Shown: one piece after another, positions 9,985 through 63,246 of the stretch
Layout: the number at the start of each line of letters is the position of its first letter
How positions within the stretch are numbered: position 1 is the stretch's first letter
Assembly (NCBI GenBank): GCA_038245195.1
Contig: JBBRSU010000001.1
Span: forward strand, 121-64,120
DNA: 64,000 nucleotides
Reading direction: 5' to 3'
Source: Candidatus Saccharimonadales bacterium
GTDB lineage: Bacteria; Patescibacteriota; Saccharimonadia; Saccharimonadales; UBA10212
The notes under the pieces: generated by a model
Database searches by the model: none
Seen by the model: only the letters and a program-made list of their open reading frames with translations
Told to the model about the DNA's origin: nothing
Translations under genes and position numbers: made by a program

Positions 9985-10566
9985 TTAAGTGTTCATCTCC
10001 TCATGTTGGGGCGTTCTAGCACTATGGTGAATGCCTAAATCGCGTAAAATATGCACCATCTTGGTTTGGATTTTCTCCGGATGGTGCACCTGTTTTATCA
10101 CCAAGTCGCCCACGTAAGTTTGCACTACTATTGTACCAAAGTGCAGCACTGTTTCTTCCAAGCCGGTAATCTGGTAGTTAATCATTTGGATTTGATCCAA
10201 CCCAATATCAACCACATTGACTTGCAGTAGTGAGCGATTCTGTTGGATGAATCGTTTGTTAGTCATAATATAAACGCTAAAGTACCAGCGCACCCACCAA
10301 GGAAAAATTAAAATCATCGCTAGCAAAAAACTGGCCACCATACTTTCAAAAAAGAAAGCGATAGTTGGCGGATTGGTTTTATCAACGTAGGTCAGAATCA
10401 AGGTGTAAAGTGGCCCAACCAAGGTACCGAAGGCCGCCAAGATTAGACCTTTACGCATAATTATTGGGTGTTTTCTAAAAACTAATAAGGTTTCTTCGTC
10501 TTCGAATTGTTCTTTAAAATGTTTAGCTTTAGTTTCGGGCTTGGCTTTGGCCGGCTTTTCGCTCAT
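9985..10566 (-). CDS. Membrane protein with a bacterial PH-like (YdbT/DUF304-type) domain
   Basis: 193 aa with two or three TM helices, then YIMTNKRFIQQNR...FGTIVVQT, typical of bPH_2 domains. TACAAT lies 6 nt upstream of the ATG. Confidence 0.6.
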   Translation of the reverse strand: MSEKPAKAKPETKAKHFKEQFEDEETLLVFRKHPIIMRKGLILAAFGTLVGPLYTLILTYVDKTNPPTIAFFFESMVASFLLAMILIFPWWVRWYFSVYIMTNKRFIQQNRSLLQVNVVDIGLDQIQMINYQITGLEETVLHFGTIVVQTYVGDLVIKQVHHPEKIQTKMVHILRDLGIHHSARTPQHEEMNT

Positions 10567-10614
10567 GGATATATTGTAACTAAAAATGGTCTAAAGAGTT
10601 AGAATGGATTGGAC

Positions 10615-10697: not shown

Positions 10698-11192
10698 TTA
10701 CTGAGTTAGATGTTGATGGGCAGTTTTGTAGACGTGAAGCTCTTCTTTGGTGAACCAATGGTCAATTTCTTGCTTGGCTTCTTTAGGGTCGGCTGAGGCA
10801 TGGATAAGGTTTGGTAGGCCACCGCCCTTTTCATTAGCGTGGTCAATGGTCATGTGGGCGTAGTCACCCCTAATAGTGCCGGGTTGGGCTTTGTGGGGTT
10901 CGGTTTCGCCAACCATCTTTCGGACAGTCGGCACGGCCTGAACACCCTCTAAAACAGCCGCAATCACCGGGCCACTCTCCATAAAATCAGCGTTACGGCG
11001 ATAGACTTCTTCGCCACGCCGACTAATCAGTTGCCCAATATTTTCATAATGATGGTGATAATGTGCTTCATCGGGGCTGACCATTTTAAGACCAACAATC
11101 TTCAAACCAGCCCGCTCGAATCGGCTTAATATTTCGCCAGCGATGCCCCGGGCAACGGCATCGGGCTTAAGTACAATCAAAGTTTTTTCCAT
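10698..11192 (-). CDS. ndk: Nucleoside diphosphate kinase
   Basis: MEKTLIVLKPDAVARGIAGEILSRFERAGLKIVGLKM... and the NLIHASAD active-site His motif. Confidence 0.95.
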   Translation of the reverse strand: MEKTLIVLKPDAVARGIAGEILSRFERAGLKIVGLKMVSPDEAHYHHHYENIGQLISRRGEEVYRRNADFMESGPVIAAVLEGVQAVPTVRKMVGETEPHKAQPGTIRGDYAHMTIDHANEKGGGLPNLIHASADPKEAKQEIDHWFTKEELHVYKTAHQHLTQ

Positions 11193-11253
11193 TAACTACA
11201 ACTTTAACAGATATAAAATCGATAGTAAATCTGGCGAACTACCAAGGGCGCTC

Positions 11254-11262
11254 TGTTAGAAT
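11254..11262 (+). promoter_or_regulatory. Extended -10 (TGtTAGAAT) exactly 6 nt upstream of the recombinase ATG; implies a leaderless mRNA
   Basis: cTGtTAGAATaagcatATG. Confidence 0.5.
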
Positions 11263-11268
11263 AAGCAT

Positions 11269-12180
11269 ATGGATTACGAGCAGGCCGTCGCCGAATTTCT
11301 GGAATACCTCGAGCTAGAACAGAACCGCTCAATGAAAACCATCCAAAACTATAGCCACTACCTTACGCGCCTGAGTGATTTTGCCGGTGAGATTAAGCTA
11401 AACGAAATCGACGATGAGTTAATTCGAAAGTGGCGGATGTGGCTCAACCGTTTGCCGACTAGCAATGCCGACGAGCTATCCAAGACTACTCAGAATTATC
11501 ACCTAATTGCCTTGCGGTCTTTTTTGCGGTTTTGTGCCAAGCGTAACTGGGCCACATTACAACCCGATAAAATTGAGCTAGCCCGGACCAAACGCCCCCA
11601 AGTAACGTTTTTAAACACCGAGGAGTTGGCTCGGCTAACTCAACAACCCGATATCACCAAACTAAACGGCTTACGCGACCGAGCCATTTTAGAGCTTCTA
11701 TTCTCAAGTGGCTTGCGCGTTAGTGAGTTGGTGGGGCTAGACCGAGACCATATTAATCTTAAAAGACGGGAATTTATGGTGCGAGGCAAAGGCCAAAAAG
11801 ACCGACCCATTTTTATCAGTCCCGATGCCGCTGATTGGATCCAAAAATATTTAGACCTTAGGGCAGACAATACTAAACCTTTGTTTATCAGATATAGCGG
11901 ATCTCGGAAAGTGGATAACAGCGGTAACTTTAGCCGCTTAACCGCCCGTAGCATTCAGCGGATGGTGGCCCGTTATGCCCTGCTGGCTGGAATTACTAAG
12001 CACGTGTCGCCTCATACGCTACGCCACAGCTTCGCTACTGACTTATTGATGAACGGGGCCGACTTACGTAGCGTACAAGCCATGTTGGGCCATAGTAATA
12101 TAGCCACAACCCAAATCTACACCCATGTTACCGACCCGCACCTAAAAGCGGTCCACGAAAAATTCCACGCCAAAAAATAG
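11269..12180 (+). CDS. Tyrosine site-specific recombinase, XerC/XerD family
   Basis: 303 aa with an SAM-like N-domain. Catalytic region HTLRHSFATDLL...LGHSNIATTQIYTHV. Confidence 0.9.
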   Translation: MDYEQAVAEFLEYLELEQNRSMKTIQNYSHYLTRLSDFAGEIKLNEIDDELIRKWRMWLNRLPTSNADELSKTTQNYHLIALRSFLRFCAKRNWATLQPDKIELARTKRPQVTFLNTEELARLTQQPDITKLNGLRDRAILELLFSSGLRVSELVGLDRDHINLKRREFMVRGKGQKDRPIFISPDAADWIQKYLDLRADNTKPLFIRYSGSRKVDNSGNFSRLTARSIQRMVARYALLAGITKHVSPHTLRHSFATDLLMNGADLRSVQAMLGHSNIATTQIYTHVTDPHLKAVHEKFHAKK

Positions 12181-14780: not shown

Positions 14781-15616
14781 TAACAAACCTTGAATTCCAG
14801 CTTCGTGGAGGGGTTAAAGCCACCACCACTTAAAATTGTAAATAACGCCGTTTCTGAATTACTGTCATTCTGAAAACAGATTTCCCAATCGCTGAGTGCA
14901 GGAGGCTCTACTAAGCCGAAGCCAAATGTGCAAGGAGCTTTATTTTCAATACAATTAACTGTTGTAGTTGTTATCCCGCCCGCATCATTGCCTAGATTAT
15001 ATTGGTAGGCTTTTAAATTAGTTTCGCCGTTCTGACCGATTGCCGTGTCAGTGTTTAAACTCAAGTAAAAGCCGGCCAGGTGGCTATTATTTCCGGCAAT
15101 TCCGCTAGATTTTACAATGCTCCTAACTGTGGTGCCGGGTCCTAGGCTATATTTTTCTGTTAACTCCGCATTGCCAGTATCTCCGCCTGATGAGCCTGCA
15201 GCTGGGACGCTACCGCTGTCTTTGATGTTGGAGACTAGGTCTCCCGAACCCAGGGTTCTTTTTCCAAAGACGGAATAAGCGTAGACATTGGTAGCCGGGC
15301 TATCGACAAATTGGATCGCTTTACCCAGAAAAATACAGTTAGGTGCAGCCCCTGCTGATCTTGCACCATTCATAATCTGCACGGCCGAGCCACCTAAATC
15401 ACAATGGTTATTTGTTATGGTGCCATATGGAAAACCATTAGAAACGTCATCAAACCAACTTTGCATTTTTGACTGTAAGTCGTGCATGTTCTGGGTGAAA
15501 CGTTGCTTGCCATCTTGGCCGGATAAAAAAGTCATCGATACCCCAACTAAGATAATTGATATCGCCATGACGATCATTACTTCAATTATCGTGAAGCCCT
15601 CCGTCACGCGCTGCAT
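14780..15616 (-). CDS. Minor type IV pilin/pseudopilin
   Basis: MQRVTEG/FTIIEVMIVMAISIILVG prepilin signal; 278 aa. Confidence 0.75.
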   Translation of the reverse strand: MQRVTEGFTIIEVMIVMAISIILVGVSMTFLSGQDGKQRFTQNMHDLQSKMQSWFDDVSNGFPYGTITNNHCDLGGSAVQIMNGARSAGAAPNCIFLGKAIQFVDSPATNVYAYSVFGKRTLGSGDLVSNIKDSGSVPAAGSSGGDTGNAELTEKYSLGPGTTVRSIVKSSGIAGNNSHLAGFYLSLNTDTAIGQNGETNLKAYQYNLGNDAGGITTTTVNCIENKAPCTFGFGLVEPPALSDWEICFQNDSNSETALFTILSGGGFNPSTKLEFKVC

Positions 15617-15623
15617 AGGTCTC

Positions 15624-15632
15624 AGTATAGCA
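15624..15632 (-). promoter_or_regulatory. Internal extended -10 (TGcTATACT) 7 nt upstream of the minor-pilin ATG
   Basis: Minus strand reads aagcttaTGCTATACTgagacctATG, in the 49-nt pilD to minor-pilin gap. Confidence 0.5.
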
Positions 15633-15665: not shown

Positions 15666-16487
15666 TTAGGTAATCAGGTTTTTGTACCAGTTCAGAAGCG
15701 AGTCACCAAAAACTACTAGTACCCCGGTAGCAATGATTAGGAAAGGTCCATAAGGCAGCTTGCTGGTCATCTTCTTATCGCCCCTGGTTAAAGCCGGAAC
15801 AATTACAGCAGTTCCGATCAATGAAGCCAGGAAAAGCATCGCCATACTTTTCGCAGGATCGGCTAAGAGCGTTCCGGTTATAAGACCCAGACGCACGTCA
15901 CCGAAACCTATCCATTTACCCTTTGATACTGTAAATAAAAGAAAAAAGATGCCACTAGAGATGGCTACTGAAAATATCCAAAGCAGAAGTAGATGCCAAG
16001 GCCTCGTCCCAAACACAATAATAAAGACCAACCGCCCGACGAAAGCCACTAAAAATGTGGGGTAGATTATCTTATTAGGTAGTAGCATCCAGTGCAGATC
16101 ATAAACAGCCAGAGCCAATAAACCCACTGAGCAAGTTAGCCATGTAGCCAATAAGAGCCATTGTCCGCCTGTATGGACAGTTACCGGCCAAAATAAGTAA
16201 CTTCCCACAAATACAAACCCAGCAACTAGTTCAACGATTGGATATTGGAGCGATATTGGCTTTTTGCAATATCGGCACTTCCCCCTCAGAATCAGCCAGC
16301 TAAATATAGGCACCAAATCATACCAAGCCAGTTCGTGCTTACATTGAGTACACATAGAGCGTCCATTTATGATAGAAGGCTTAAAGTTCTTCTTCTTATT
16401 CTGTTCATGAAGTCGCCAAACAAGGGCGTTTACGAAACTGCCTGCACATATGCCTAGGAATAAAATATATAAGGCTACGAGAATCAT
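15666..16487 (-). CDS. pilD: Prepilin peptidase/N-methyltransferase (A24 family)
   Basis: 273 aa polytopic membrane protein. Cys pairs CTQCKHEL...CRYCKKPI in the cytoplasmic loop. GFGDVRLG Asp motif. Confidence 0.9.
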   Translation of the reverse strand: MILVALYILFLGICAGSFVNALVWRLHEQNKKKNFKPSIINGRSMCTQCKHELAWYDLVPIFSWLILRGKCRYCKKPISLQYPIVELVAGFVFVGSYLFWPVTVHTGGQWLLLATWLTCSVGLLALAVYDLHWMLLPNKIIYPTFLVAFVGRLVFIIVFGTRPWHLLLLWIFSVAISSGIFFLLFTVSKGKWIGFGDVRLGLITGTLLADPAKSMAMLFLASLIGTAVIVPALTRGDKKMTSKLPYGPFLIIATGVLVVFGDSLLNWYKNLIT

Positions 16488-16520
16488 TAGCCTTATCCTA
16501 GCAGAAATTGCCTTTCAATA

Positions 16521-27228: not shown

Positions 27229-27749
27229 TTTATGCTGTCCAGCGTAGATTTAATACCCTCAGCTGCCTGAGTATTGCCCTCGGCAATATATTTCTTTTCA
27301 AGAAGGCTAAGATAATTTTTATACTGCTGGGTATTCCCGTCCTCTTGCTGGAGATTAGCCATTTCGCTATAAGCCATGGTTGTAACTTTATCCGCAGGCA
27401 CAGAATCAAAAACTTCGCTCATAACTCTTATGGCGTTTTTGTAGTCGTTTGCCGCATCGTATTTAGCAGCTAAAGAAATCTGGCTATCAATATAAGATTC
27501 GTAGTTCTTGTTTTGCAAAAATATATTAGTTGAATCTTTGCCTGCTTTCTCGAATTGGACCGGTTTGGAAACTCCTATCTTGGAAAGTTTCTTTTCTTCG
27601 CTATGAGTGAGCTTCCGATAAACAAATATGCCGGCAAACACCAGTAAAGCAATAACTATTATAAGAATAATAATTCTTAAGAATTCTTTTAATCCCAAAG
27701 TTTTCTTAGTTTTTAGATTATCACCAAAAGCAGCCACACTGAGCTTCAT
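27225..27749 (-). CDS. Membrane-anchored helical (TPR-like) protein, first gene of the pilus operon
   Basis: 174 aa. TM helix IIILIIVIALLVFAGIFVY, then a helical-repeat-like region. TATAAT lies 8 nt upstream of the ATG. Confidence 0.55.
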   Translation of the reverse strand: MKLSVAAFGDNLKTKKTLGLKEFLRIIILIIVIALLVFAGIFVYRKLTHSEEKKLSKIGVSKPVQFEKAGKDSTNIFLQNKNYESYIDSQISLAAKYDAANDYKNAIRVMSEVFDSVPADKVTTMAYSEMANLQQEDGNTQQYKNYLSLLEKKYIAEGNTQAAEGIKSTLDSIK

Positions 27750-27837
27750 GCTTAAGCATTATAGATAGGTTGTAATAAACAGGCAATAAGCGATTATGGT
27801 TTTACCCGCAGCCCCTTATCAGAGCTGCGGGGTTAAG

Positions 27838-30950: not shown

Positions 30951-31085
30951 AATATATCTCCTTAATAGCCTTATTAAACCAGTTAAATGCCGGCAAATAA
31001 AGCCATCCAGCAAATACTGTTAGATAAATCACAGGCAAAGAATAGTCCGCTTTGTTATTATCGGAGGTATTAATAGGAGGATACT

Positions 31086-31448
31086 ATGCCCAGAGAAGTA
31101 GTTAGAGAAAGAGTTATCGACACACCCGACGAAGCTGCAGTCGCACCGGTAAACGAGCATCCACAAAATGTCGCCACCAGGGTAATCTGGTACATAGCTG
31201 GTGTACTTCTGGTACTACTAGCCTTTAGGTTCATACTATCGTTGCTTGGAGCCAACACCACTAATGGTTTCGCCAATTTCATATACTCGGTCTCGCACCC
31301 ATTCGTGGCACCCTTCTTCAGCCTGTTTAGTTACAATAATATCCACTACGGAGTTTCGAGGTTTGAGGTTTACACCCTGGTCGCCATGGCGGTCTATGCT
31401 GTGATTGCTTGGGGCATAAGTGCGCTAGTTAATATCAGCCGTCGCTAG
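31086..31448 (+). CDS. YggT-family membrane protein
   Basis: 120 aa. ...LLVLLAFRFILSLLGANTTNGFANFIYSVSHPFVAPF... matches the YGGT repeat pattern. AGGAGG SD. Confidence 0.65.
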   Translation: MPREVVRERVIDTPDEAAVAPVNEHPQNVATRVIWYIAGVLLVLLAFRFILSLLGANTTNGFANFIYSVSHPFVAPFFSLFSYNNIHYGVSRFEVYTLVAMAVYAVIAWGISALVNISRR

Positions 31449-32530
31449 CTAAATTTTTTTGCGGCAGGTCTGGGTTTATCAGCCTCGAGTTTCGATGTTG
31501 GCTGAGTTTCGATTTGCACCGGCCTGGTACGTCGCCTGAAGACTTCGCCAGTAACAATACTGCCGGCTCCTAACACCGTATAGAGCCCGCCAAAGTACCA
31601 GTAGTTCTTATCGATTTGCTGAAATATATCAGTCGCTAAATTCCTCATATCTTGCTGTAAAATTGCATTATTATTCTGAACTTTTGGTACAACTTTAGTG
31701 CTCACTACCCGGTTTAGCACATAAGAAAATATTAACAATATTAAACCAATCGCCACCAAGTTAATCCCAACATGGCGTAAGCCTTTTTGCCAAGTATTAC
31801 TCAGAAAAACTATACTCAGGCCAGTCAGAATAGTAAGCATCGATAAGATAAAGGGCGTTTTTTTGGCTAGCTGGTATTGTTTTGGCACATTCTTGACCTT
31901 CGATTGCTCAAAAACCGGCTGGTTGTTCTGGCCTTTAATGCTACTGGCACTCAGGTCCAGTTTGTCCAAAAAACCACTAGACTCTAGGCTGGCTTTGACA
32001 CTATCCGCAGCACTTTCAGCGCTGACGCCTTTTGGCAAACAACTAATAGTGTTTACGTTTAGCTGGCCACTCTGAAGTATTTGTAGACTTTGTGAGTTCG
32101 TACAAGCCGGCAACCCGGCCAACCGTTGCCCAACGCTCGCCGAAAGACTTTCAGCAAATGTGTTTCTTGGGGTTGTTAAGTCAAACTTGAATGTGGGTTG
32201 GGCCACCTGCCCATCCAGCCACTGGTAAATGTTATCAATGGCAATCTCGGCGTTCTGTTGTATGTATTGTGGGCTGACGGCTTGGTTGGCGGCCTTCTCA
32301 ATTGCCGGATCGCTGGTCGAAAAGTTACCTACCGGAGTGTCAATCGATTTGGTTTGCTGTAAAAGATTGGGGATCAAACTATTGTAGATACCACTCTCGG
32401 ATATCAAATGTTTAACGGTGGCTGGATGAGTCGCCGTACGAACAAAACCAATATCAAATGCCGTAGCAAACAAAAGTGTAATAAACAGCGGACTCAGGAT
32501 AAATAAACCTATCCTCCGCAAGATATCCAT
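31445..32530 (-). CDS. Hypothetical integral membrane protein
   Basis: 361 aa. N-terminal TM helix, a large extracytoplasmic segment, three or four C-terminal TM helices and a basic tail. Confidence 0.6.
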   Translation of the reverse strand: MDILRRIGLFILSPLFITLLFATAFDIGFVRTATHPATVKHLISESGIYNSLIPNLLQQTKSIDTPVGNFSTSDPAIEKAANQAVSPQYIQQNAEIAIDNIYQWLDGQVAQPTFKFDLTTPRNTFAESLSASVGQRLAGLPACTNSQSLQILQSGQLNVNTISCLPKGVSAESAADSVKASLESSGFLDKLDLSASSIKGQNNQPVFEQSKVKNVPKQYQLAKKTPFILSMLTILTGLSIVFLSNTWQKGLRHVGINLVAIGLILLIFSYVLNRVVSTKVVPKVQNNNAILQQDMRNLATDIFQQIDKNYWYFGGLYTVLGAGSIVTGEVFRRRTRPVQIETQPTSKLEADKPRPAAKKFS

Positions 32531-32590
32531 AAGCAGTATTCTAGCAGAATCCCCAACAATGGCTTGATGAGCTATAATTACCTCTGTCGT

Positions 32591-34192: not shown

Positions 34193-34290
34193 TTCCCTGG
34201 ACTCCTTTACCTAATTAAGTGAATAATACTACATTTTTAATAAATTTCAACTAGGTCCAACAAACCTACTTAATCTGATAACATAACTTT

Positions 34291-34464
34291 ATGAGTCCAT
34301 TTTTAGTCAGTCTTTTCTTTACAGCCGGGGCCTCTACCTGGATTTACACCAGATTCCAGCGAACTAGTGGTAATAACACTAAACAATCGGCTACCGCCGC
34401 CGGAGTGGCCGGTTTATTCATCTTCATTGTTTTCTTTTACATCACACACTCACTCCTAAAATAA
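34291..34464 (+). CDS. 57-aa two-TM membrane peptide
   Basis: MSPFLVSLFFTAGASTWIYTRFQRTSGNNTKQSATAAGVAGLFIFIVFFYITHSLLK*. TGaTAACAT box 6 nt upstream. TAATG coupling to the HIT gene. Confidence 0.4.
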   Translation: MSPFLVSLFFTAGASTWIYTRFQRTSGNNTKQSATAAGVAGLFIFIVFFYITHSLLK

Positions 34465-38659: not shown

Positions 38660-39715
38660 TTAGAGGTTGGGGATAACTTCTAATTTATGGGGGTCAGCGT
38701 AGACTTTGGGCTGGTAATAAGCGGCCGCTGCAATCATGGCGGCATTGTCGGTACAGAGTTTAATGTCTGGGCAGAGCAGGGGAGTGTTTAGTCGAATCTT
38801 AAGTTCTTGCCGAAGAGCCGTATTGGCGGCCACACCGCCCGCCAACAACACTACTTTAGGGGTAAATTCGGCTTCGGCTTTAGCAACCGTGCTACACAAA
38901 GTTATAACGGCAGTATGCTGGAAACTTGCCGCCAAGTTTGCCTTCTGAGTATCCGTTAATAGCTCGCTAAGTTCGAACGAAGGCAGGGTATAATCTCTGC
39001 CGGCCATTTCTTGACCGGCTCGTAAAACGGCAGTCTTTAAACCCGAGAAACTGAAGTCATAGGGATTTTCAAGTTTAGCAATCGGCAATTTAACCGAGTT
39101 CGGGTCACCGGTTTTAGCTATCTTATCCAGCGATGGGCCACCGGGGTAGGGGAGTCCTAAGATTTTAGCTACTTTGTCGTAAGCTTCGCCCACCGCATCA
39201 TCTCTGGTCTGGCCCAGAATGTTGTAATTTTTATGACTATTATATAGCATTAGTTGGGTATGGCCACCAGAGACAATTAAGGTTAGGAAAGGGAACTCAA
39301 TTTTAGTACTTGCTAGTTGGTAGGTGGTGGATAATTCGGGAGTAGTTTCGGTTATAAAATTGGCATAGCTGTGGGCCAGCACATGATTTATAGGGATGAG
39401 TGGCTTATTTTTAGCTATAGCTAAGCTTCTAGCGGTCATCATCCCAACCAACAAACTGCCAATAAGCCCCGGTCCTTGGGTAACAGCAATCGCAGCAATC
39501 GCATCCCAACTACACTTAGCCTCTGATACAGCTTGTTCGATAACTGGAATTATCACCTCAATATGACTCCGAGCCGCAATTTCCGGTACCACCCCACCGT
39601 AGGCCGTGTGTAAATCAACACTACTAGCTACCACATTGCTGAGCATCTTTTTTCCATCTTCAATAACCGCCGCTGCGGTTTCATCACAAGAAGTCTCGAT
39701 TCCCAGAATTTTCAT
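38660..39715 (-). CDS. tsaD: tRNA N6-adenosine threonylcarbamoyltransferase
   Basis: MKILGIETSCDETAAAVIEDGKK..., a canonical TsaD/Kae1 N-terminus. Start trimmed from 39937 to ATG 39715. Confidence 0.92.
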   Translation of the reverse strand: MKILGIETSCDETAAAVIEDGKKMLSNVVASSVDLHTAYGGVVPEIAARSHIEVIIPVIEQAVSEAKCSWDAIAAIAVTQGPGLIGSLLVGMMTARSLAIAKNKPLIPINHVLAHSYANFITETTPELSTTYQLASTKIEFPFLTLIVSGGHTQLMLYNSHKNYNILGQTRDDAVGEAYDKVAKILGLPYPGGPSLDKIAKTGDPNSVKLPIAKLENPYDFSFSGLKTAVLRAGQEMAGRDYTLPSFELSELLTDTQKANLAASFQHTAVITLCSTVAKAEAEFTPKVVLLAGGVAANTALRQELKIRLNTPLLCPDIKLCTDNAAMIAAAAYYQPKVYADPHKLEVIPNL

Positions 39716-39724
39716 CTGTTGTAC

Positions 39725-39732
39725 AGTATACT
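39725..39732. promoter_or_regulatory. Palindromic AGTATACT giving overlapping TATACT -10 boxes for divergent tsaD and murE
   Basis: The whole tsaD-murE intergenic region is 25 nt (ctgttgtacAGTATACTcaaaagtg). TATACT lies 8 nt from the murE ATG and 9 nt from the tsaD ATG. Confidence 0.5.
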
Positions 39733-39740
39733 CAAAAGTG

Positions 39741-41027
39741 ATGAATGCCAGGAAAATTGTTAAAAAACTAATTCCACGCAGTCTTTTTGCAAAGATAGAA
39801 CCACTCGGACATTTGGCCGAGGCAGTGATTTTTAACCTGTTATACGGCTTTCCGGCCCGTGGCTTTAAGGTTATCGGCATCACTGGTACTAACGGCAAAA
39901 CCACTACGGCGTTTTTAGTGCATCGGATGCTACACACGGCTGGCTACAAGGTTGGCCTAATGACCACCGTTGCCTATGGGGCCGGTGATAATATCAAACC
40001 TCAGGTCTACCATATGACTAATGTGCCGGTGCCAGTGATGATGAAACGTCTTAAGTATCTTAAATCTCAGGGGGTTGAGTGGCTAGTTATGGAATCTACT
40101 AGTATGGCTCTGGCCCAAAACCGGGTGTGGGGCGTGCCATTTCAGCTGGCGGTTATGACTAATATTAGCCAAGACCATCTGGACTATCACAAAACCATGG
40201 CCAACTATATTAAGGCTAAGCTTAAGCTGTTCCGCTTAACAAATAACAACAAAAAGGGCCTGCAAACAGGGGTAATTAACGCCGACGATGCCACCGCTGG
40301 GCAGTTTAGCTCGGCCATTTTGCATTCTAAGACTTATGGGATAAATAGTGGAGACTTGCGAGCCAAAGACATTAAATTATCGGCCTTGGGTGTGAGCTAC
40401 ACGGCCAAATCAACGAGCACAGAATATAAAATATCCAGCCATTTACCAGGCCAGTTTAACATCTATAACAGCTTGGCGGCGGTGAGTGTTGGCGAAGTGT
40501 TGGGGCTAAGCAAAGACCAAATCCAGCAGGGAATTGCCGCACTTGGGGGAGTGCCAGGCCGAATGACGGCCATAGACGCCGGACAAAGCTTTAGTGTAAT
40601 TGTAGACTTCGCACACTCGCCAGATGCCCTACAAAACGTTCTAACAGCTTGCAGGGGGCTCACAAAGGGCAAGGTAATACTAGTGTTTGGGGCTACAGGC
40701 GACCGCGATAAGTCTAAACGGCCGATTATGGGTGAAGTAGCGGTTAAACAAGCCGATTTAATTTATTTAACGGATGATGAAACCTACACCGAAAACCCAC
40801 AAGCAATCATCGAAGAAGTTTATAAGGGTATCGAAACCGCTGGTGGCCAAGCCAAAACCACCATAATTGGTGACCGACTTAAAGCTATCAAAGCCGCTTT
40901 TGCAACCGCTAAAGCCGGCGACACGGTGTTATTAACTGGTATCGGTCACGAAACTACCCGCAATATGGGCGGTAAAGAAGAACCTTGGAACGAAATCGAA
41001 CTAGCCCAAAAACTCCTTAAGAAATAG
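39741..41027 (+). CDS. murE: UDP-N-acetylmuramoyl-tripeptide synthetase (Mur ligase, MurE-like)
   Basis: GITGTNGKTTT P-loop. Mur ligase middle and C-terminal domains (GATGDRDKSKRP). Start trimmed from 39606 to ATG 39741. Confidence 0.85.
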   Translation: MNARKIVKKLIPRSLFAKIEPLGHLAEAVIFNLLYGFPARGFKVIGITGTNGKTTTAFLVHRMLHTAGYKVGLMTTVAYGAGDNIKPQVYHMTNVPVPVMMKRLKYLKSQGVEWLVMESTSMALAQNRVWGVPFQLAVMTNISQDHLDYHKTMANYIKAKLKLFRLTNNNKKGLQTGVINADDATAGQFSSAILHSKTYGINSGDLRAKDIKLSALGVSYTAKSTSTEYKISSHLPGQFNIYNSLAAVSVGEVLGLSKDQIQQGIAALGGVPGRMTAIDAGQSFSVIVDFAHSPDALQNVLTACRGLTKGKVILVFGATGDRDKSKRPIMGEVAVKQADLIYLTDDETYTENPQAIIEEVYKGIETAGGQAKTTIIGDRLKAIKAAFATAKAGDTVLLTGIGHETTRNMGGKEEPWNEIELAQKLLKK

Positions 41028-42506: not shown

Positions 42507-42536
42507 TTGACACTGTATTTGGCACTCGGGTATTAT
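42507..42536 (+). promoter_or_regulatory. groESL promoter (TTGACA, 18 nt spacer, TATTAT)
   Basis: TTGACA at 42507-42512 and TATTAT at 42531-42536, overlapping the CIRCE element. Confidence 0.65.
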
Positions 42537-42545
42537 GAGTGCTAG
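42519..42545 (+). promoter_or_regulatory. CIRCE operator (HrcA binding site)
   Basis: TTGGCACTC-N9-GAGTGCTAG compared with the consensus TTAGCACTC-N9-GAGTGCTAA. Lies 52 nt upstream of groES. Confidence 0.8.
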
Positions 42546-42596
42546 CGTCCGCTGGTTGAGCGGAGATTTTCTAGGAAATAACTAAGGAGGAATTAT

Positions 42597-42860
42597 ATGG
42601 CTGGATTAAATCCATTGGCCGACTGGGTGGTCGCCGAGCAAGAAGAGGCTGTTACTAAAACAGCTAGTGGTTTGTACTTGCCTGACAAAGCCACCGAGAA
42701 ACCTAAGATTGCCAAGGTTTCAAAAGTTGGTAAAAATGTTAAGGAAATCAAAGTTGGGGATAGGATAGTTTATAAATCTTATAGTACTACCGAAGTTAAA
42801 GTGAATAATAAAGAGTATATCCTGGTCAAAGAAGAGGATATCCTAGCGACCGTTAAATAG
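42597..42860 (+). CDS. groES: Co-chaperonin GroES
   Basis: 87 aa with an AAGGAGG SD. ...LYLPDKATEKPKIAKV...GDRIVYKSY... Confidence 0.95.
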   Translation: MAGLNPLADWVVAEQEEAVTKTASGLYLPDKATEKPKIAKVSKVGKNVKEIKVGDRIVYKSYSTTEVKVNNKEYILVKEEDILATVK

Positions 42861-48601: not shown

Positions 48602-48797
48602 TCGCAGAAGTATTTTAACAGATAGATAACTCTTTTAATTCAGCTTCCCTGCTGATGGTAAAATAGTAGTAGCGGCAAGTAAAACATAAACTACTAAAAT
48701 TTTCTTACCGCATTAAGTGACTTTTCTTAGCTAATTTTCAGCTTCGTCTGCCAAACTAGCTAGGCAACACCAAAAAAGTTAAACAAGGAGTACCAAC

Positions 48798-49244
48798 ATG
48801 ACTGACAGCTTGAGTGATAAAGAATTGATAAAAGAGATTGTAACTAGCGTTTCCCAACTACAGGATATGAAGCAGTGGGAGCGCCTGGAAGATTACTTTG
48901 TTAAGAAACCCTACGTTGATAACAAATCGATTAGTGGTGAAATGCCGGCTATGATCCCTAAGAAACGGCTAATTGATGGTTGGCGCCGAGAAATCGGCAG
49001 TTATTTCTACGCCACTAGGCATTTTATCCGCCGGCTGGCGGTTAGAATGGTTAGTAGCCGTCGAGCCAAGGTTAGCACCTCAGTTGAGCATGTTCATTAT
49101 GTGGCTGATAGAGGCGACCGTTACGTATGGACTGTCCGTGGCACCATCGATTACATCCTTGTTAAAACTAGCACCGGTACCTGGAAAATCAGCCAAATGA
49201 TATTTAAAATGACTGACCAAGCCGTTCGCCCCCTCGGTGCCTAA
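48798..49244 (+). CDS. NTF2-like (SnoaL-type) small protein
   Basis: 148 aa with an AAGGAG SD. Size and pattern (...WERLEDYF...GTWKISQM...) suggest an NTF2-like fold. Low specificity. Confidence 0.5.
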   Translation: MTDSLSDKELIKEIVTSVSQLQDMKQWERLEDYFVKKPYVDNKSISGEMPAMIPKKRLIDGWRREIGSYFYATRHFIRRLAVRMVSSRRAKVSTSVEHVHYVADRGDRYVWTVRGTIDYILVKTSTGTWKISQMIFKMTDQAVRPLGA

Positions 49245-49287: not shown

Positions 49288-49293
49288 TAGAAT
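49288..49293 (+). promoter_or_regulatory. -10 box TAGAAT 6 nt upstream of the ATG at 49300 (leaderless pattern)
   Basis: aagtTAGAATagagctATG. Confidence 0.45.
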
Positions 49294-49299
49294 AGAGCT

Positions 49300-49986
49300 A
49301 TGAGTGGGACTTCTTTGAACGTTTTAATAATCTATGCACATCATGAGCCGGGTAGTTTTACGGCGGCTATGAAGAATATAGCTATTCAATCATTGGAAGC
49401 TCAGGGTCACAATGTAACCGTTACCGACCTGTACGGCCAAGGATTCAGTGCCGTGGCCCAAAAATGGGATTTTGTGACCACAAGTGGCGGCCATTTTAAC
49501 TACATGCTCGAGCAAAAACACTCGGCGATTTTGCAAAACTCTTTCTCACCGGATATCGTCGGTGAAATTCAAAAGCTTCAAGCCGCCCATGTGGTGTTAT
49601 TTATCAGCCCAATTTGGTGGTTTAGTGTGCCGGCCATCCTTAAGGGCTGGTTCGACCGGGTGTTGGCCATGGGCGTGGCCTGGGATACCGCCAAGATTTA
49701 TGAAAATGGTTTAATGCGTGGCAAACAAGCCATGCTAGTTATGGCTGGTGGACACCCCAGTGAATACTATGAGTTAAAGGGCCGGCACGGTGTTAGCCCT
49801 AAGCAAATGTTGAACCACATCAACCACGGTACCCTAGCCTTTTGTGGTTTTAATGTTCAGGAGCCGTTTGTAGCCCTAAACGTCATGGGTTCTAGTGTTG
49901 ATGGCCGCGAAAAAGCCTTACAGGAGTTTGAGACTCGTATAAAAAGCTTGGTTGATAGTCCCTTGTGGCTAAGTTATTACGGCTGA
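49300..49986 (+). CDS. Flavodoxin-like NAD(P)H:quinone oxidoreductase (Flavodoxin_2/NQO-type)
   Basis: 228 aa. VLIIYAHHEPGSFTAAM...SPIWWFSVPAILKGWFDRV. Confidence 0.8.
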   Translation: MSGTSLNVLIIYAHHEPGSFTAAMKNIAIQSLEAQGHNVTVTDLYGQGFSAVAQKWDFVTTSGGHFNYMLEQKHSAILQNSFSPDIVGEIQKLQAAHVVLFISPIWWFSVPAILKGWFDRVLAMGVAWDTAKIYENGLMRGKQAMLVMAGGHPSEYYELKGRHGVSPKQMLNHINHGTLAFCGFNVQEPFVALNVMGSSVDGREKALQEFETRIKSLVDSPLWLSYYG

Positions 49987-50785: not shown

Positions 50786-50794
50786 TGTTATTAT
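50786..50794 (+). promoter_or_regulatory. Extended -10 (TGtTATTAT) 6 nt upstream of the argS ATG (leaderless pattern)
   Basis: aacTGtTATTATtgaatcATG. Confidence 0.5.
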
Positions 50795-50800
50795 TGAATC

Positions 50801-52459
50801 ATGCAATCGCAGGAGTTAATTCGGGCCATTCAGGTAGCAGCCCACAAGCTATATAATGCCAAGATTGAGCCAGAACTCAGCCGGCCGGATGAACAATTCG
50901 GCGATTATGCCACCAATGTAGCGTTGCAGTTAGCCAAAGCCACTGCCAAATCCCCCCAAGAAATCGCCCGAGCTTTGGTTAATGAGCTTAAAGACAGCCC
51001 AGGCATCGCTACCGTATCTATTGCAGGACCAGGCTTTATAAATTTCAAACTAACTGATAGTGCACTAGCCAAAACGGCACTAGTTGCAATCGATTTGCCA
51101 AAACCGCTGGCTGGCCAGGAAATTTTGGTTGAATTTGGCGACCCCAACCCCTTTAAAGAGATGCACATCGGCCATCTTTACAGCTACATTGTTGGCGACG
51201 CCATTAGCTCGCTCCTGGAAACTGCTGGTGCCCAAGTTCGTCGTTTAAGCTACCACGGCGATGTTGGTTTGCATGTGGCTAAAGCCATTTATGGGCTCCA
51301 AAATATGACCGACAGGACCGATTTGAAGGATGCTTCAGATGTCAGCGACAATGAGAATTATCTAGCCACGGCTTACGCCAGTGGTGCCAAAGCCTACGAA
51401 GATGATGAATTAGCCAGAAACGAAATCAACTCTATAAATACCCATATCTATGGTGGTAGTGACCCGGAAATTAACAAATTACATAAAAATGGCAGCCAAT
51501 TAAGTTTTGAGTATTTTGACAAAATACTTGAGCTGTTAAGTATTTCTACGGATAAGCGATACCTAGAAAGCCAAACAATTGAAGCCGGCAAGAAGCTGGT
51601 AGAAAAAAATGTCGGCCAGGTTTTTAGCCAAAGCCAGGGTGCCACAGTTTATGACGGCGAAAAAGTTGGGTTACATACCCGAGTTTTTATTACTTCTAAA
51701 AATTTGCCAACCTATGAGACCAAGGACCTGGGACTGTCTCAGCTGAAGAACAAAGACTACCCTGGGGCTACTCGCTCAATCATTATCACTGCCAACGAAC
51801 AGACTGAGTATTTTAAAGTTATGTTGGCCGCTCTAAAAGATATCGACCCAATACTGGCCGCTAAAACCACCCACTTGGCACACGGTTTCGTGAACCTTTC
51901 TAGCGGTAAAATGAGCAGCCGGACCGGTAATGTTTATCCAGCCATGAAGTTATTGCGATTGGTAAAAGACGCTGTGCACCAGCAATACCCCGAGTCTAAA
52001 GTCAGAAAAGAAGTGACTTTTGCAGCCGTTAAATACGCTTTTCTGAAACACCGTTTGGGTTCAGACATCACCTTGGACGTAGAAGAATCAATTAGCCTAG
52101 AAGGCAACAGTGGACCATACATCCAATATTCCCATGCCCGAGCCTGTAGCATATTGGCAAAATCCAAAATCCAAACTTCAAACATCGAAATTAAGGAATT
52201 TGATGATAGCGAGCGAAGTTTGGCCCGTAAGATTAGTCAGTACCCCGAGATAGTTGATAAAACCGTTGCCGAGTTAATGCCACACCATATCTGCACCTAC
52301 CTTTATGAGCTGGCTCAAACTTTTAACAGCTTTTATGAATCCAGCCGAATAATTGGCGATGAGCGCCAGCCCATCCGCCTAAAACTTGTAGGTGCCTACC
52401 AGCAAATCCTGGCCAATGGACTAGCAATATTAAATATTAAAGCTCCTGAAAGGATGTAA
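50801..52459 (+). CDS. argS: Arginyl-tRNA synthetase
   Basis: 552 aa. HIGH-type motif EMHIGHLYS. ArgRS N-terminal and DALR anticodon-binding features. Ends ...APERM. Confidence 0.96.
51523..51544 (+). repeat. Copy C of the conserved near-palindrome, inside argS in the sense orientation
   Basis: AATACTTGAGCTGTTAAGTATT, encoding I-L-E-L-L-S-I. Confidence 0.6.
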
Positions 52460-53179: not shown

Positions 53180-53771
53180 GTGGTGGATTAGCCAGTAAGG
53201 TGCCGGCTCCATCGTAAGCGTTTTTGAGAATGGTTTTACCTTTGGGACCGGCCAACTTAAAAGCAATCTGTAAATCGGCCTGATATTTAGTCAAGCTCTG
53301 CTGTAGATAGGTTTTGTAGGCTTGGTCCAAGTTGTTGTTTTGCGAGGCTGATAGCATCTGGGCATCAGTGGTTTTATCTAAGTCAGCTGCCAGCAATGCC
53401 GCACTTAGTTTGGTATGGTTATTAGCAAGATAGACCTTAAGCTGTTGTTGGTCGCTAGTTAATGAACTCAGGGTGGTTGCAGCTACGGCTTGAGTAGTGG
53501 GGTCTTGCAAGTTAAGTAGTTGGACGGCATGGGTTACCCGCAAAGTCTCTTGTCCCCGAGCCATAGCATTAATAATTGGCTGGGTGGCCCCTTTGTTACG
53601 TCCTGAGAGTGTTGAGCTAATGATTATAAGTATAAAAACCGCCAAAACTACGCCTAAAATAATTTTTACCGGCTTGGACATACCAGGCAAAGCCAACCGC
53701 CGTTTTGGCTTCTGGTTATCCTTGAGCATAAAATCAAACTTGGGGTCCGGGCTTTGCGGTTGCATAAGCAT
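53169..53771 (-). CDS. Hypothetical membrane-anchored protein
   Basis: 200 aa with one TM helix (VKIILGVVLAVFILIIISS) and a helical ectodomain. A TGcTATCAT box abuts the first ATG, so the true start may be ATG 53765. Confidence 0.55.
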   Translation of the reverse strand: MLMQPQSPDPKFDFMLKDNQKPKRRLALPGMSKPVKIILGVVLAVFILIIISSTLSGRNKGATQPIINAMARGQETLRVTHAVQLLNLQDPTTQAVAATTLSSLTSDQQQLKVYLANNHTKLSAALLAADLDKTTDAQMLSASQNNNLDQAYKTYLQQSLTKYQADLQIAFKLAGPKGKTILKNAYDGAGTLLANPPLKS

Positions 53772-53807
53772 TATGATAGCAGGGGAGGGGCTTTAGGGTA
53801 CAGAGCA

Positions 53808-53835: not shown

Positions 53836-53854
53836 TAAGCTATAATATTATGAT

Positions 53855-54415
53855 ATGGAGCTGACTGTAGTTAGGCATGGAGAGACTTTCGAAAATGCCA
53901 GCGACACAATAATGGGCCACCATGATGGGACATTAAACGAAAAGGGGCTTGAGCAAGCTGATAAAACCGCCGAAAAACTAAAAGACAAAAACTTTGATCA
54001 AGCGTGGTCTTCTGATTTGAAGCGTTGTGTCGATACCGCTAAACTTATTCTGCGATTTCATCCTTCCCTGAAGCTGGAAACTAATCGAGCCCTAAGAGAA
54101 GTTAATTATGGAAAATTCCAAGGCCGGCCGGGGACAGAAATAAGGGCATTTTTTGATAAAGAAGGCGGCTACACTAGAACCTCTCAAGTCCCAGGCGGAG
54201 AGACCCAACTTGATATGTCAACCCGCGTCCTTCACTTTGTAAACGATCTTTTTGATCAATACTCTAGCCAAAGAATCCTAGTCGTATCTCATAACGGGCC
54301 TATTGAAGCAATTAGAGCTGCTGTCGAGAGAACTCCATTTTTAGGCGATGCCAAAAATGCTAGCATTTTACAACTCCGGGTCACAAAGCCGCTTGAGCTT
54401 TACCCTATACTCTAA
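53855..54415 (+). CDS. Histidine phosphatase family protein (phosphoglycerate mutase-like)
   Basis: 186 aa with the catalytic RHGET motif (LTVVRHGETFEN) and a downstream SHNGPI. Confidence 0.85.
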   Translation: MELTVVRHGETFENASDTIMGHHDGTLNEKGLEQADKTAEKLKDKNFDQAWSSDLKRCVDTAKLILRFHPSLKLETNRALREVNYGKFQGRPGTEIRAFFDKEGGYTRTSQVPGGETQLDMSTRVLHFVNDLFDQYSSQRILVVSHNGPIEAIRAAVERTPFLGDAKNASILQLRVTKPLELYPIL

Positions 54416-54433
54416 ACCCTATACCCTATAAAT

Positions 54434-56179
54434 ATGGATGCGGTTGCGGAGGTTAAGTCTAGGTTAAGTATCGAGGATGTAATTAGCGAATACGTCCAGC
54501 TTAAGCGTACCGGTAGAAACTTTAAAGGTAATAGCCCCTGGACCAACGAAAAAACTCCAAGTTTTATAGTTAGCCCCGAAAAACAGATTTGGCATGATTT
54601 TTCATCGGGCAAGGGTGGCGACATGTTTAGCTTTGTGCAGGAAATGGAAGGCCTAGATTTTAGAGCCACACTAGAGCTGTTGGCCCGTAAAGCCGGGGTC
54701 GATTTAGACCAATTTAAAAACTCCAAGCCCGGCGTCAGCACTGAGCTTAAAAATCGGGCTTTGGAAGTGCTAGAACTATCCGCCAAGTTTTATCAAAAAC
54801 AACTCACTGTTAATAAAACAGCCTATGAATACCTGGCAAATCAGCGGGGTTTTAGCAAACCAACCATTTTAACTTGGCGGCTAGGCTATGCCCCCAACAC
54901 CGGCTTTGCACTGACCAATTTCTTGACCAAGCAGGGATTTACAACTGATGAGATGAAACGAGCTGGCGTGATTTTTCAGCGAGCCACACATAGTTCGGAT
55001 ATGTTTCGTGGCCGAATTATGATTCCGCTGGCCGACCAAGCTGGCCAAATTGTGGGCTTCACAGCCCGGTTATTAGCCGATGAGCCCGACTCGCCGAAAT
55101 ATATTAATACCCCGCAGACTGTTACATATGATAAAAGCCGCCAGGTTTACGGGCTGCATTTGGCCAAAGAAGCCATTAGAAAACAAGCTTTTGTGGTAGT
55201 GGCTGAAGGCAATTTAGATGTTATTGCCAGCCACCAAGCTGGCATAAGCAATGTGGTGGCCAGTGCCGGTACCGCCATGACCGAGCAGCACTTAAAAATA
55301 CTCAAGCGTTTTACGGGTGATATCCGCTTGAGTTTTGATGCCGATAATGCCGGCATTGCCGCCACCGAGCGAGTCATACCATTAGCTCAAAAAGCCGAAG
55401 TGTCTTTACGGATAATAAGCATCAAAGACGCCAAAGACCCCGATGAACTTATCCGTAAAGACATTAATTTTTGGCATAAAGCTATTGAAGACTCGCAATA
55501 CGCTCCGGATTGGCTGATTGACCGTTACAAATCCGAAGTTGACCTGAAGTCGGCTGCTGGTAAACGGATGTTTACTGATGCTTTGCTAACCACTATCCGC
55601 CAACTACGCGACCCGATTGAACAAGAACATTATCTTAAAAAAATCGCTGAACTCACTGATACTAGTTTGCATGCCGTCGAATCCAAATTCGCCACTCCAA
55701 CTGCTAAAACCGATTCGCTCAAAAAACCCAAAGCCGATTTGACCATCTTAGATAAAACTCAAGTGGAATACCAACGCCTGCAAGATCATCTTTTAGCCAT
55801 GTTTTTAATGCAGCCCAAAATAAGAGAACTTTTACAGGCTAGTAAGTCCGAATTTTTTACTGACGGACCTCAGCGCCAAGTGTTTAAATTCCTGCAGGAT
55901 AACCCTGACTTTAAAGGCGACCCAAAAGTGGCCGCCAAATTGCAACCAGTGGCTGATTATGTTAAAATTATAATGTTACAGTTTGAGGAATTATATCAAG
56001 ATTTGCCGCTCGACGATTTACGCGATTTGGCGGCTCAGCTCAAACACCGTCTTATAGACAGGTACGTCAAAATACAAAAACATACGCTTGCAGTTGCCAT
56101 GCAAGAGGCCAAGGGCGATAATGAGCTCAACTCACTAATGTCAAAGGCCGATAAACTGAACGAACTTATTAAGAGCTAG
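54434..56179 (+). CDS. dnaG: DNA primase
   Basis: 581 aa. Zinc-binding-region-like N-terminus, TOPRIM ([11 protein letters not shown]...FDADNAG). Upstream of rpoD as in the conserved operon. Confidence 0.93.
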
Positions 56180-56192: not shown

Positions 56193-57335
56193 ATGCCAAG
56201 AAAAAAGAAAACTGATGATATGGTCACCAAAGCCAGCAAATCTTTTGAAAAAGAAATGCTGCAGCTGGTGGAACGTGGTAAAAAAGCTGGGAAAATCGAA
56301 CAAAGTGAAATTTTCGAACTTATTCCTGATACTCCGGCTAACATCGATGTTTTAGAAGAACTTTATGTAGATTTAGCCGATGAAAGCGTTGATGTTATTC
56401 CGGTGACCGAGCCCCGGCCCGAGGATATTGCCGAAACCGACCAGTGGGCAGTTGAAGCCGAAGCTGACGAAGTTATTCCAGAGGATACCAGCTACTTAGA
56501 CGATATCGCCGATGATTCTGTTCGGCTTTATTTGCGTGAAATCGGCAAAATTCCGCTATTAACTTCTGAAGAGGAGTTGGCATTAGCCCAAAAGGTTGTG
56601 TCTGGCGATAAACTAGCCAAAGATCAGATGGCCGAGGCTAACATGCGCTTAGTGGTCTCTATCGCTAAACGCTACGTTGGCCGTGGGTTGGATTTACTAG
56701 ACCTAATCCAAGAAGGCAATACAGGTTTGTTGCGGGCAGTTGAGAAATTCGACCCCGACCGCGGTTTTAAATTCTCAACCTACGCCACTTGGTGGATTCG
56801 CCAAGCTATAACTCGGGCCATTGCCGACCAAGCCCGAACAATTCGCATCCCGGTGCACATGGTTGAGACAATTAATAAGCTGCTGCGCACCCAACGCCGT
56901 TTAACCCAAGAGCTTAACCGCGAACCAACCAACGAAGAAATCGCCGCTGCCATGGAGATGGAAGTCGACAAAGTAGAGCACATCATGAAAATTAAACAAG
57001 ATATTTCCAGCCTAGATGCTTCAGTTCGTGACGACGAAGAAGATTCCGTATTAGGAGATTTCATCGAGGATGAAGACGCCAAAACCCCTACCGAATCGGC
57101 CTCAGAACAGCTCTTAAAAGAGCAAGTTAAACAGATATTGGGTAGCCTTACCGAGCGTGAGCAAAAAATCTTAAAACTACGCTTTGGCCTGGAAGACGGC
57201 AAAAGCCACACCTTAGAGGAAGTCGGCCAAGAATTCAGTGTTACCCGCGAACGTATCCGCCAAATAGAAGCCAAAGCTTTGGCCAAGCTGCGTAAGCATA
57301 AAGATACCCGTCGCCTCCACGAATACCTCCAGTAA
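56193..57335 (+). CDS. rpoD: Primary RNA polymerase sigma factor
   Basis: 380 aa. Region 2 [37 protein letters not shown] and region 4 [24 protein letters not shown]. Confidence 0.96.
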
Positions 57336-59027: not shown

Positions 59028-59033
59028 TATAAT
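59028..59033 (+). promoter_or_regulatory. -10 box TATAAT 8 nt upstream of the polA GTG start
   Basis: gcgTATAATttaaggtaGTG. Confidence 0.4.
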
Positions 59034-59041
59034 TTAAGGTA

Positions 59042-63205: not shown

Positions 63206-63246
63206 TATTGCTATTTTAGTTCTAAAATGGTATTATATGCCTTGAA

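Follow-up and report, generated by a model that had tools for sequence, protein, structure and literature searches.

The gene finder GeneMarkS-2 distinguishes a group C of genomes in which a Pribnow box lies 6-8 nucleotides (nt) from the starts of the first genes of operons and 25-50% of transcripts are leaderless; according to the main text of that study the group consists chiefly of Actinobacteria (Mycobacterium tuberculosis, Streptomyces and Corynebacterium) and Deinococcus-Thermus, and the inference was checked against differential RNA sequencing (dRNA-seq) of several species, Deinococcus deserti among them (PMC6028130). A comparable arrangement is described here in a window of 64,000 nt (the whole stretch of DNA that was analysed, positions 121 to 64,120 of contig JBBRSU010000001.1, assembly GCA_038245195.1) from Candidatus Saccharimonadales bacterium, in which a -10-like hexamer, TAnnnT, often extended to TGnTAnnnT, is found a few nucleotides upstream of start codons. 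An initial annotation of this sequence had proposed widespread leaderless messenger RNAs (mRNAs), a claim which is supported in silico: it is very probable, judging from promoter geometry, that these elements are sigma-70 extended -10 promoters set so that transcription would start on the A of the start codon, or 1-3 nt before it, to give leaderless mRNAs. The phenomenon is textbook knowledge, and what counts here is its firm extension to a new major lineage, not a new mechanism.

The window resembles group C in its proximal Pribnow box, in the Shine-Dalgarno (SD) type ribosome-binding site carried at a similar distance by the remaining genes, in a -35 element that is weak or absent, in the dominance of ATG as start codon and in extent, with a rough 40-45% of the transcription units of the window compared to ~25-50% in group C. 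It differs in its lineage, the Saccharibacteria (TM7) of the Candidate Phyla Radiation (CPR, or Patescibacteria), which is not mentioned in the main text of PMC6028130, and in two further respects, namely the prominence of the extended -10 (TnTGn) and the demonstration that the mode is conserved gene by gene across a lineage. The actinobacterial and Deinococcus cases also rest on dRNA-seq, while the Saccharibacteria case is argued from sequence. In full-text literature searches no explicit description of leaderless transcription was found for Saccharibacteria or other CPR bacteria, although TM7x may be listed under group C in the GeneMarkS-2 supplementary tables; in the Saccharibacteria and CPR literature searched, the word 'leaderless' occurred in reference lists and once in a passing remark on YchF.

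Two other arrangements are related more distantly. The leaderless transcripts of archaea (GeneMarkS-2 group D; Haloferax and Sulfolobus) share with the present case an mRNA running from the start codon, a promoter at a fixed distance and SD-led internal genes; their promoter, however, is a TATA box with a B recognition element (BRE) ~26 nt upstream, read by TBP and TFB, whereas here a sigma-70 -10 lies at 6-9 nt and an rpoD gene is present. In the Bacteroidota-type group B many genes likewise have no Shine-Dalgarno sequence, but the non-SD motif of that group stands before all genes, operon-internal ones included, and hence is no promoter, whereas the Saccharibacteria motif has promoter features, is found at 0% of groES, groEL and rpoD orthologs and coexists with a GGAGG/CCUCC system.

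Start-proximal -10 elements and their promoter features

Starts in the window were called mechanically as the first ATG of each open reading frame (ORF), and upstream sequence had no role in the choice. The first two ORF-selection schemes were dropped because either real overlapping genes were lost or shadow ORFs were let in, and a third scheme was used; ORF and start calls are crude, and the enrichment estimates that result are rated as conservative. It was observed that TAnnnT preceded 16 of the 69 ORF starts at a spacer of 6-9 nt, compared to 6.0 expected from other offsets and 6.9 from dinucleotide shuffles (binomial P =2.5e-4), with 6, 5 and 6 occurrences at spacers of 6, 7 and 8 nt against ~1.7 per position elsewhere. 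The extended form TGnTAnnnT was found 6 times where 0.3-0.6 were expected (P =4.5e-5). The -10-like strings listed in the initial annotation for six genes with a 6-nt spacer, and for a group with 7-9 nt (starts at 15616, 27749, 39741, 39715, 53855, 59042 and 53765), were all found verbatim in the sequence, and further sites beyond that list were identified at 11192 (ndk), 16487 and 32530 on the reverse strand, at 54434 (dnaG) and, with longer spacers, at 63247 (10 nt) and 38404 (reverse strand, 11 nt). In total ~20 of roughly 66 window genes are of the -10-proximal type, perhaps 40-45% of its transcription units, and TGn is present at 11 of these ~20 sites.

The ArgS protein of the window was used as a query to obtain a comparison set of 80 loci from other Saccharibacteria species (44-70% identity; species representatives of GTDB that with few exceptions carry the label Saccharibacteria, Saccharimonadales or Saccharimonadia), giving a total of 1.36 Mb and 1628 ORFs. 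At spacers of 6, 7, 8 and 9 nt TAnnnT was counted 168, 127, 113 and 80 times over a background of ~48, and TGnTAnnnT 55, 42, 27 and 30 times over a background of ~4. Overall, TAnnnT was present at spacers 6-9 in 460 of the 1628 ORFs, while 164-181 were expected from dinucleotide shuffles and other offsets, and TGnTAnnnT in 154, while 9-16 were expected (>10-fold). The TAnnnT peak was maximal at a spacer of 6 nt, no such peak was seen when in-frame internal ATGs were used as a control, and a weaker replicate, again peaking at 6 nt, was obtained with 205 ORFs adjoining TM7 rRNA operons. Enrichment of -10 motifs at -12 to -7 from starts, proposed at the outset as a check on leaderless transcription, is strong both in the window and in the 80 species.

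When 478 cases were aligned on T1, A2 and T6 only, positions 3-5 of the hexamer were found to be T (54%), A (68%) and A (54%) or C (28%), which gives TATAAT or TATACT; in the same alignment G at -14 reached 51%, T at -15 41%, T at -17 46% and A at -6 47%. The unconstrained positions of the start-proximal motif are those of the sigma-70 extended -10 consensus (T-17, TG, TATAAT). An unbiased 6-mer search of the 20 nt before starts returned two word families only, one of the AAGGAGG type and one of the TATAAT/GTTATA/GGTATA/TCTGTT type, with TATAAT itself enriched 10.8-fold. In the test for a -35 element the best score barely differed from the shifted control (2.70 against 2.64, and 2.85 against 2.71), so that no -35 signal was detected, and a scan of 48-64 kb of the window for classical -35/-10 pairs of hexamers returned 25 sites compared to 24.0 in shuffled sequence. 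As both of these results were null, the signal lies in the -10 or extended -10 and its distance to the start codon and not in -35/-10 pairs. The window encodes a primary sigma-70 factor, RpoD, with the full set of Pfam Sigma70 regions (Table 1), which would read extended -10 promoters.

Bacterial transcription start sites (TSSs) prefer a pyrimidine at -1 and a purine at +1. In the class with a 6-nt spacer the base directly before the ATG was T in 61%, C in 28%, A in 9% and G in 2% of cases, and this proportion of pyrimidines (89%) fits a transcription start on the A of the ATG, the seventh base after the hexamer; G was found at this position in 14-16% of SD-led and unclassified genes. At spacers of 8 and 9 nt, A was enriched at -1 and -3 respectively, close to or at the seventh base after the hexamer, which suggests that these genes would have leaders of 1-3 nt. 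Neither the pyrimidine bias nor the A enrichments are imposed by the search pattern.

The start codons were also distinctive. Among 142 extended -10-proximal starts of longest ORFs, 131 were ATG, 8 GTG and 3 TTG, compared to 64% ATG in other ORFs, and the lengths of homologues match the called starts. At -10-proximal starts the hexamer occupies the position of an SD sequence and no SD lies upstream; an SD core and a proximal -10 occurred together in only 5 of 620 divergent first genes, of which 201 carried the -10 and 122 the SD.

The base at +4 also differed between gene sets across the 80 loci, being A in 44-57% and T in 6-9% of -10-proximal genes and A in 32-35% and T in 16-19% of SD-led and other genes. 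Such a bias could reflect what is favoured in the initially transcribed sequence or in leaderless translation.

Conservation of the initiation mode at orthologous genes

Orthologs were scored for a -10 at 5-10 nt and for an SD core after their starts had been aligned to those of the window genes. At argS the -10 was found in 71 of 78 orthologs (91%), 58 of them extended, and an SD core in 5 of 78 (6%); with the narrower range of 5-9 nt TAnnnT was present in 67 of 79 orthologous loci, mostly as cTGtTAtAnT. Similar results were obtained for dnaG (-10 in 36 of 44, 82%, typically TATACT; SD 11%), polA (8 of 10, 80%; SD 0%), where the closest orthologs use ATG at the aligned position, tsaD and the murE-like gene (each 4 of 4, 100%; SD 0%) and the gene at 53765 (10 of 16, 62%, 8 of them extended; SD 0%), and the flavodoxin-like gene at 49300 carried the -10 in 6 of 9 orthologs. 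The share of SD cores in the -10 families was 0-11%. The opposite pattern was seen at groES (SD core 34 of 34, 100%), groEL (81%), rpoD (28 of 32, 88%) and the gene at 48798 (11 of 13, 85%), all with a -10 in 0%, and at the gene at 50558 (SD 78%, -10 7%). Judging from these alignments the mode of initiation is conserved gene by gene across the lineage. It is also somewhat favoured, at a little better than even, that the trait is ancient, lineage-wide and gene-specific, with argS, polA, dnaG, tsaD, the murE-like gene, the xerD-like gene and ndk leaderless, and groESL and rpoD SD-led, through class-level divergence.

The xerD-like recombinase gene and ndk diverge across an intergenic region of 76 bp (11193-11268) which holds two back-to-back extended -10 elements, 6-8 nt from the respective start codons. 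The start of the recombinase ORF (11269-12180, 303 amino acids) is the earliest possible one, and Pfam places a SAM-like domain (Phage_int_SAM_1) from residue 8 and the catalytic Phage_integrase domain at residues 114-289. The protein is 100% identical to P0001, and on the 4.5-kb Logan contig that carries the latter the upstream region is identical over the 110 nt compared. Among orthologs cTGyTAGAAT is kept 6 nt from the ATG in three loci (L082, L091 and L093) and TACACT stands 7 nt from it in L089, the spacers having otherwise diverged; at ndk TGtTAAtAT or TGtTAAAAT is found at the same 8-nt spacing in the three loci with a readable start. The sequence between the two genes beyond both -10 elements diverges or varies in length, being ~68-103 bp in closer relatives and far longer in L089.

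The starts of tsaD and the murE-like gene, also divergent, are separated by 25 bp only. In this gap the palindrome AGTATACT (39725-39732) provides a TATACT -10 on either strand, at 9 nt and 8 nt from the two starts, and the arrangement agTATACT is found in L019 and L026 as well. The palindrome has the look of a bidirectional promoter of minimal size that serves two predicted leaderless genes. Bidirectional promoters made from symmetric -10 elements are reportedly known from work by Warman and colleagues in Nature Microbiology (2021); the tsaD/murE-like palindrome is like these in offering one -10 per strand and unlike them in that both predicted transcripts would be leaderless, with starts 25 bp apart, and in that its function is deduced.

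An ORF of 57 amino acids (34291-34464) has 37 homologues, mostly of 57 amino acids, and tTGnTATNAT at 6 nt from the ATG is kept in four orthologous loci; it is a real conserved gene. Its stop codon overlaps the ATG of a downstream HIT-family gene, which has no SD, by 1 nt (TAATG, 34462-34466), and the same overlap is present in L214-L218 (positions 301-474 and 474-774). As the overlap is conserved, termination-reinitiation coupling of the HIT-family gene behind a putative leaderless small ORF is suggested. The product of the small ORF resembles a two-helix membrane protein, and in L214 and L216 a tRNA gene ends immediately before its promoter.

Both modes stand side by side within one operon in the dnaG-rpoD pair (54434-57335), where dnaG is -10-proximal and rpoD, 13 nt downstream, is SD-led.

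Individual sites and other modes of initiation

The coordinates of the -10-proximal starts and of the principal SD-led starts are collected in Table 1. From its N-terminal motif (N-terminus MIKAVIFDFFGVL), the product of the ORF that runs off the end of the window may be a candidate HAD-like protein.

Table 1. Start-proximal -10 elements and SD-led starts in the window
Feature	Position	Strand	Element	Spacer (nt)	Start	Sequence or remark
ndk, nucleoside diphosphate kinase (10698-11192; Pfam)	11190..11209	-	TGtTAAAGT	8	ATG 11192	
xerD-like, XerC/D-type tyrosine recombinase	11254..11271	+	TGtTAGAAT	6 (aagcat)	ATG 11269	TGtTAGAATaagcatATG
193-aa protein, no Pfam match	10564..10578	-	TACAAT	6	ATG 10566	C at -1; TACAATatatccATG
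Pilin-like protein	15614..15632	-	TGcTATACT	7	ATG 15616	weak N_methyl match
Prepilin peptidase	16485..16503	-	TGcTAGGAT	7	ATG 16487	Peptidase_A24
174-aa protein	27747..27763	-	TATAAT	8	ATG 27749	
361-aa protein	32528..32546	-	TGcTAGAAT	7	ATG 32530	
57-aa small ORF	34276..34293	+	TGaTAACAT	6	ATG 34291	TGaTAACATaactttATG
Gene at 38404		-	-10	11	38404	same site type
tsaD / murE-like Mur-ligase gene	39713..39743	both	palindrome (see text)		ATG 39715 (-) / ATG 39741 (+)	25-bp intergenic region; Pfam TsaD and Mur_ligase
Flavodoxin-like-fold protein	49288..49302	+	TAGAAT	6	ATG 49300	Flavodoxin_2 from residue 7; TAGAATagagctATG
argS, arginyl-tRNA synthetase	50786..50803	+	TGtTATTAT	6	ATG 50801	TGtTATTATtgaatcATG
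198-aa protein	53763..53781	-	TGcTATCAT	7	ATG 53765	
Histidine-phosphatase family protein	53841..53857	+	TATAAT	8	ATG 53855	His_Phos_1 from residue 4
dnaG, DNA primase	54422..54436	+	TACCCT (weak)	6	ATG 54434	Pfam DnaG domains
polA, DNA polymerase I	59028..59044	+	TATAAT	8	GTG 59042	5'-3' exonuclease domain from residue 6
Gene at 63247	63228..63249	+	TGgTATTAT	10	ATG 63247	predicted leader ~3 nt
ORF running off the window end	63837..63854	+	TGcTATAGT	6	ATG 63852	TGcTATAGTtattagATG
YGGT-family protein	31075..31088	+	AGGAGG	5	ATG 31086	
groES, leadered start	42507..42599	+	TTGACA 42507-42512, 18 nt, TATTAT 42531-42536; AGGAGG 42585-42590	6	ATG 42597	
SnoaL-like protein	48786..48800	+	AGGAG	7	ATG 48798	
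rpoD, primary sigma-70	56193..57335	+	GGAG	8		Pfam Sigma70_r1_1, r1_2, r2, r3, r4

Alongside the -10-proximal starts, AGGAGG, AAGGAG and GGAGGT were found to be enriched 13- to 19-fold before starts at spacers of 5-8 nt, and GGAGG-type sites mark groES, groEL, rpoD, the genes at 31086, 48798, 21560 and 22237, and others. The coexistence of two modes stated in the initial annotation is borne out, GGAGG (5-9 nt spacer) and -10-proximal starts being conserved at different gene families. Of the classical SD sequences it named, those of groES, 31086 and 48798 hold; that of pilA is not clearly confirmed. The clearest type IV pilin gene (16569-17021, reverse strand; N_methyl at residues 8-33) lacks both a proximal -10 and an SD at proper spacing, and carries AAGGGGG ~17 nt and TAAAAT ~29 nt upstream of its ATG at 17021. 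It had further been held that genes in GC-rich islets use SDs, which is not established, the statement resting on two or three genes (41562, 58039/58042). One GC-rich stretch, 58201-58800 (59% compared to ~46%), lies inside the gene at 58039-58917, and milder ones were seen at 40801-42000 (53%) and 12001-12600 (54%).

The window has three tRNA genes; no rRNA gene was found either in the 64 kb or in the argS loci, and the anti-SD was checked instead on metagenome contigs through a TM7-specific 16S probe site. TM7-type 16S genes were recovered from 83 such contigs, none of them from this genome, and the listed 3' ends read ACCTCCTT, most of them as GGATTACCTCCTTTCT, with the CCUCC anti-SD intact. 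The result is in line with PMC9297842, in which loss of the anti-SD among CPR bacteria is restricted to a subgroup of the Parcubacteria.

The groES gene has a leader of ~55 nt, and its TTGACA is an exception to the missing -35 element. Its promoter is overlapped by a CIRCE-like (controlling inverted repeat of chaperone expression) repeat at 42519-42545, TTGGCACTC-N9-GAGTGCTAG, with 2 mismatches to the consensus and 0.02 matches expected by chance. Strings similar to GAGTGCTAA are also found ahead of groES in four loci (L001, L025, L029 and L053). The repeat suggests a possible HrcA/CIRCE heat-shock control in Saccharibacteria.

Several operon-internal starts without an SD were observed to overlap the upstream stop codon (GTGA or ATGA type, gaps of -1 to -8), at 4287-4290, 14780, 47497-47500 and 61669. 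Translational coupling is pointed to as a third way of initiation in this genome.

Competing explanations and significance

If TAnnnT were an AU-rich translation signal of the non-SD kind (an S1-binding or unstructured-region enhancer of the sort seen in group B, or Bacteroidota-type, genomes) within a longer 5' untranslated region, the promoter would lie further upstream. The element does take the place expected of a ribosome-binding site, the ribosomes of CPR bacteria are unusual in having a bS1 of only 3-4 domains and in missing several ribosomal proteins (PMC9297842), and the wanting single-base TSS evidence is counted in favour of this account. It is nevertheless quite improbable, as an enhancer needs neither the TG at -15/-14 nor T-17 nor a strict T-12, A-11 and T-7, and would not call for a pyrimidine right in front of the ATG, exactly 7 nt from the hexamer. 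Furthermore, AGTATACT serves divergent genes so closely spaced that there is no room for an upstream promoter outside coding sequence, and mostly operon-internal or SD-led families carry GGAGG and not the TAnnnT word. A different objection accepts the -10 boxes as promoters and places the true translation starts downstream of the adjacent ATGs, so that the mRNAs would be leadered and the spacing would follow from choosing the most upstream ATG. Starts were indeed assigned mechanically, and gene callers disagree on some homologues (P0119, for example, was called at 332 amino acids from an upstream TTG); this is very improbable all the same, since in the called proteins (recombinase, flavodoxin-like protein, histidine phosphatase and, counted from its GTG, PolA) the Pfam domains set in at residues 2-8, these starts being the earliest in their ORFs with the next in-frame starts 20-40 codons downstream and lacking an SD. 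Ortholog N-termini also align from position 1-5 with the -10 at a fixed distance, and a random relation of promoter to ATG would yield neither the sharp peak at 6 nt nor the pyrimidine bias at -1.

The hexamer is degenerate, TAnnnT occurring at ~3% of upstream positions, and chance matches in intergenic DNA of high AT content, or remnants of in-frame TAA and TAG stop codons upstream of the first ATG, would produce some sites; a minor peak at a spacer of 0 nt is just such an artefact, with TAA or TAG stop codons in 58 of 75 cases. As an account of the sites in general this is hardly credible: dinucleotide shuffles and other offsets gave 2.5- to 3-fold fewer matches, and at least 10-fold fewer of the extended form, the hexamers at spacers 6-9 begin mostly with TAT or TAC and not as stops, spacers of 7 and 8 nt are out of frame, and the element is conserved at orthologs. 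Chance, composition and the stop-codon artefact are refuted for the class as a whole by the shuffles, offsets, internal ATGs and orthologs, and apply at most to single weak sites.

Some observations weigh against leaderless initiation from extended -10 promoters. Among ORFs whose upstream gap does not exceed 25 nt, ~21% also had TAnnnT at 6-9 nt compared to a background of ~11%, which means either that there are promoters inside upstream genes or that some starts or gaps were miscalled. On a possible restriction of the element to first genes the observations differ, the ~21% having been obtained with crude ORF calls and rpoD behind dnaG and groEL behind groES having a proximal -10 in 0% of orthologs. 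Chance could account for the matches at 54434 (TACCCT), 57347, 7733 and 50558, the orthologs of the last being mostly SD-led. The literature searched contained no single-base TSS map for this organism or any Saccharibacterium, a preprint on the TM7x transcriptome being without TSSs or promoters, and 188 TM7x TSSs derived from RNA sequencing are noted in PMC12641261 as variable in their distance from the -10.

In the favoured explanation of leaderless initiation, the sigma-70 holoenzyme would recognise TnTGnTATAAT or TnTGnTATACT without a conserved -35, the step for which there is sequence evidence. Transcription would then start on the A of the AUG or 1-3 nt upstream, as geometry and the Actinobacteria and Deinococcus cases indicate, and the mRNA would have neither a 5' leader nor a Shine-Dalgarno sequence. 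By analogy with leaderless mRNAs that have been studied, ribosomes would bind the 5'-terminal AUG together with initiator tRNA. A second set of genes, comprising operon-internal genes, groES/EL and rpoD, would have leaders in which GGAGG pairs with CCUCC, and in some downstream genes an overlap of the start codon with the preceding stop (TAATG, GTGA) would provide coupling.

Nearly all knowledge of Saccharibacteria and other CPR bacteria comes from metagenome-assembled genomes, in which gene starts are predicted by software adjusted to SD-led genes. Should at least a third of CPR transcription units be leaderless, start-codon annotation and the discovery of small ORFs, such as the 57-amino-acid ORF at 34291, would be improved. 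The rule TGnTAnnnT, 6-9 nt, ATG would serve to mend gene starts and find small ORFs in CPR genomes, and the compact extended -10 would be a minimal promoter-plus-start cassette for new Saccharibacteria genetic systems. The finding would also single out the genes whose translation is probably weak or different, namely housekeeping enzymes and not chaperones or the sigma factor. Genomes rich in leaderless genes characterise Actinobacteria and Deinococcus-Thermus, and the trait would thus be an extra character in the debate on CPR placement; were it present in further CPR lineages, it would link the CPR with the leaderless-rich Terrabacteria (Actinobacteria, Deinococcus). Saccharibacteria epibionts and their actinobacterial hosts would then share a style of translation initiation.

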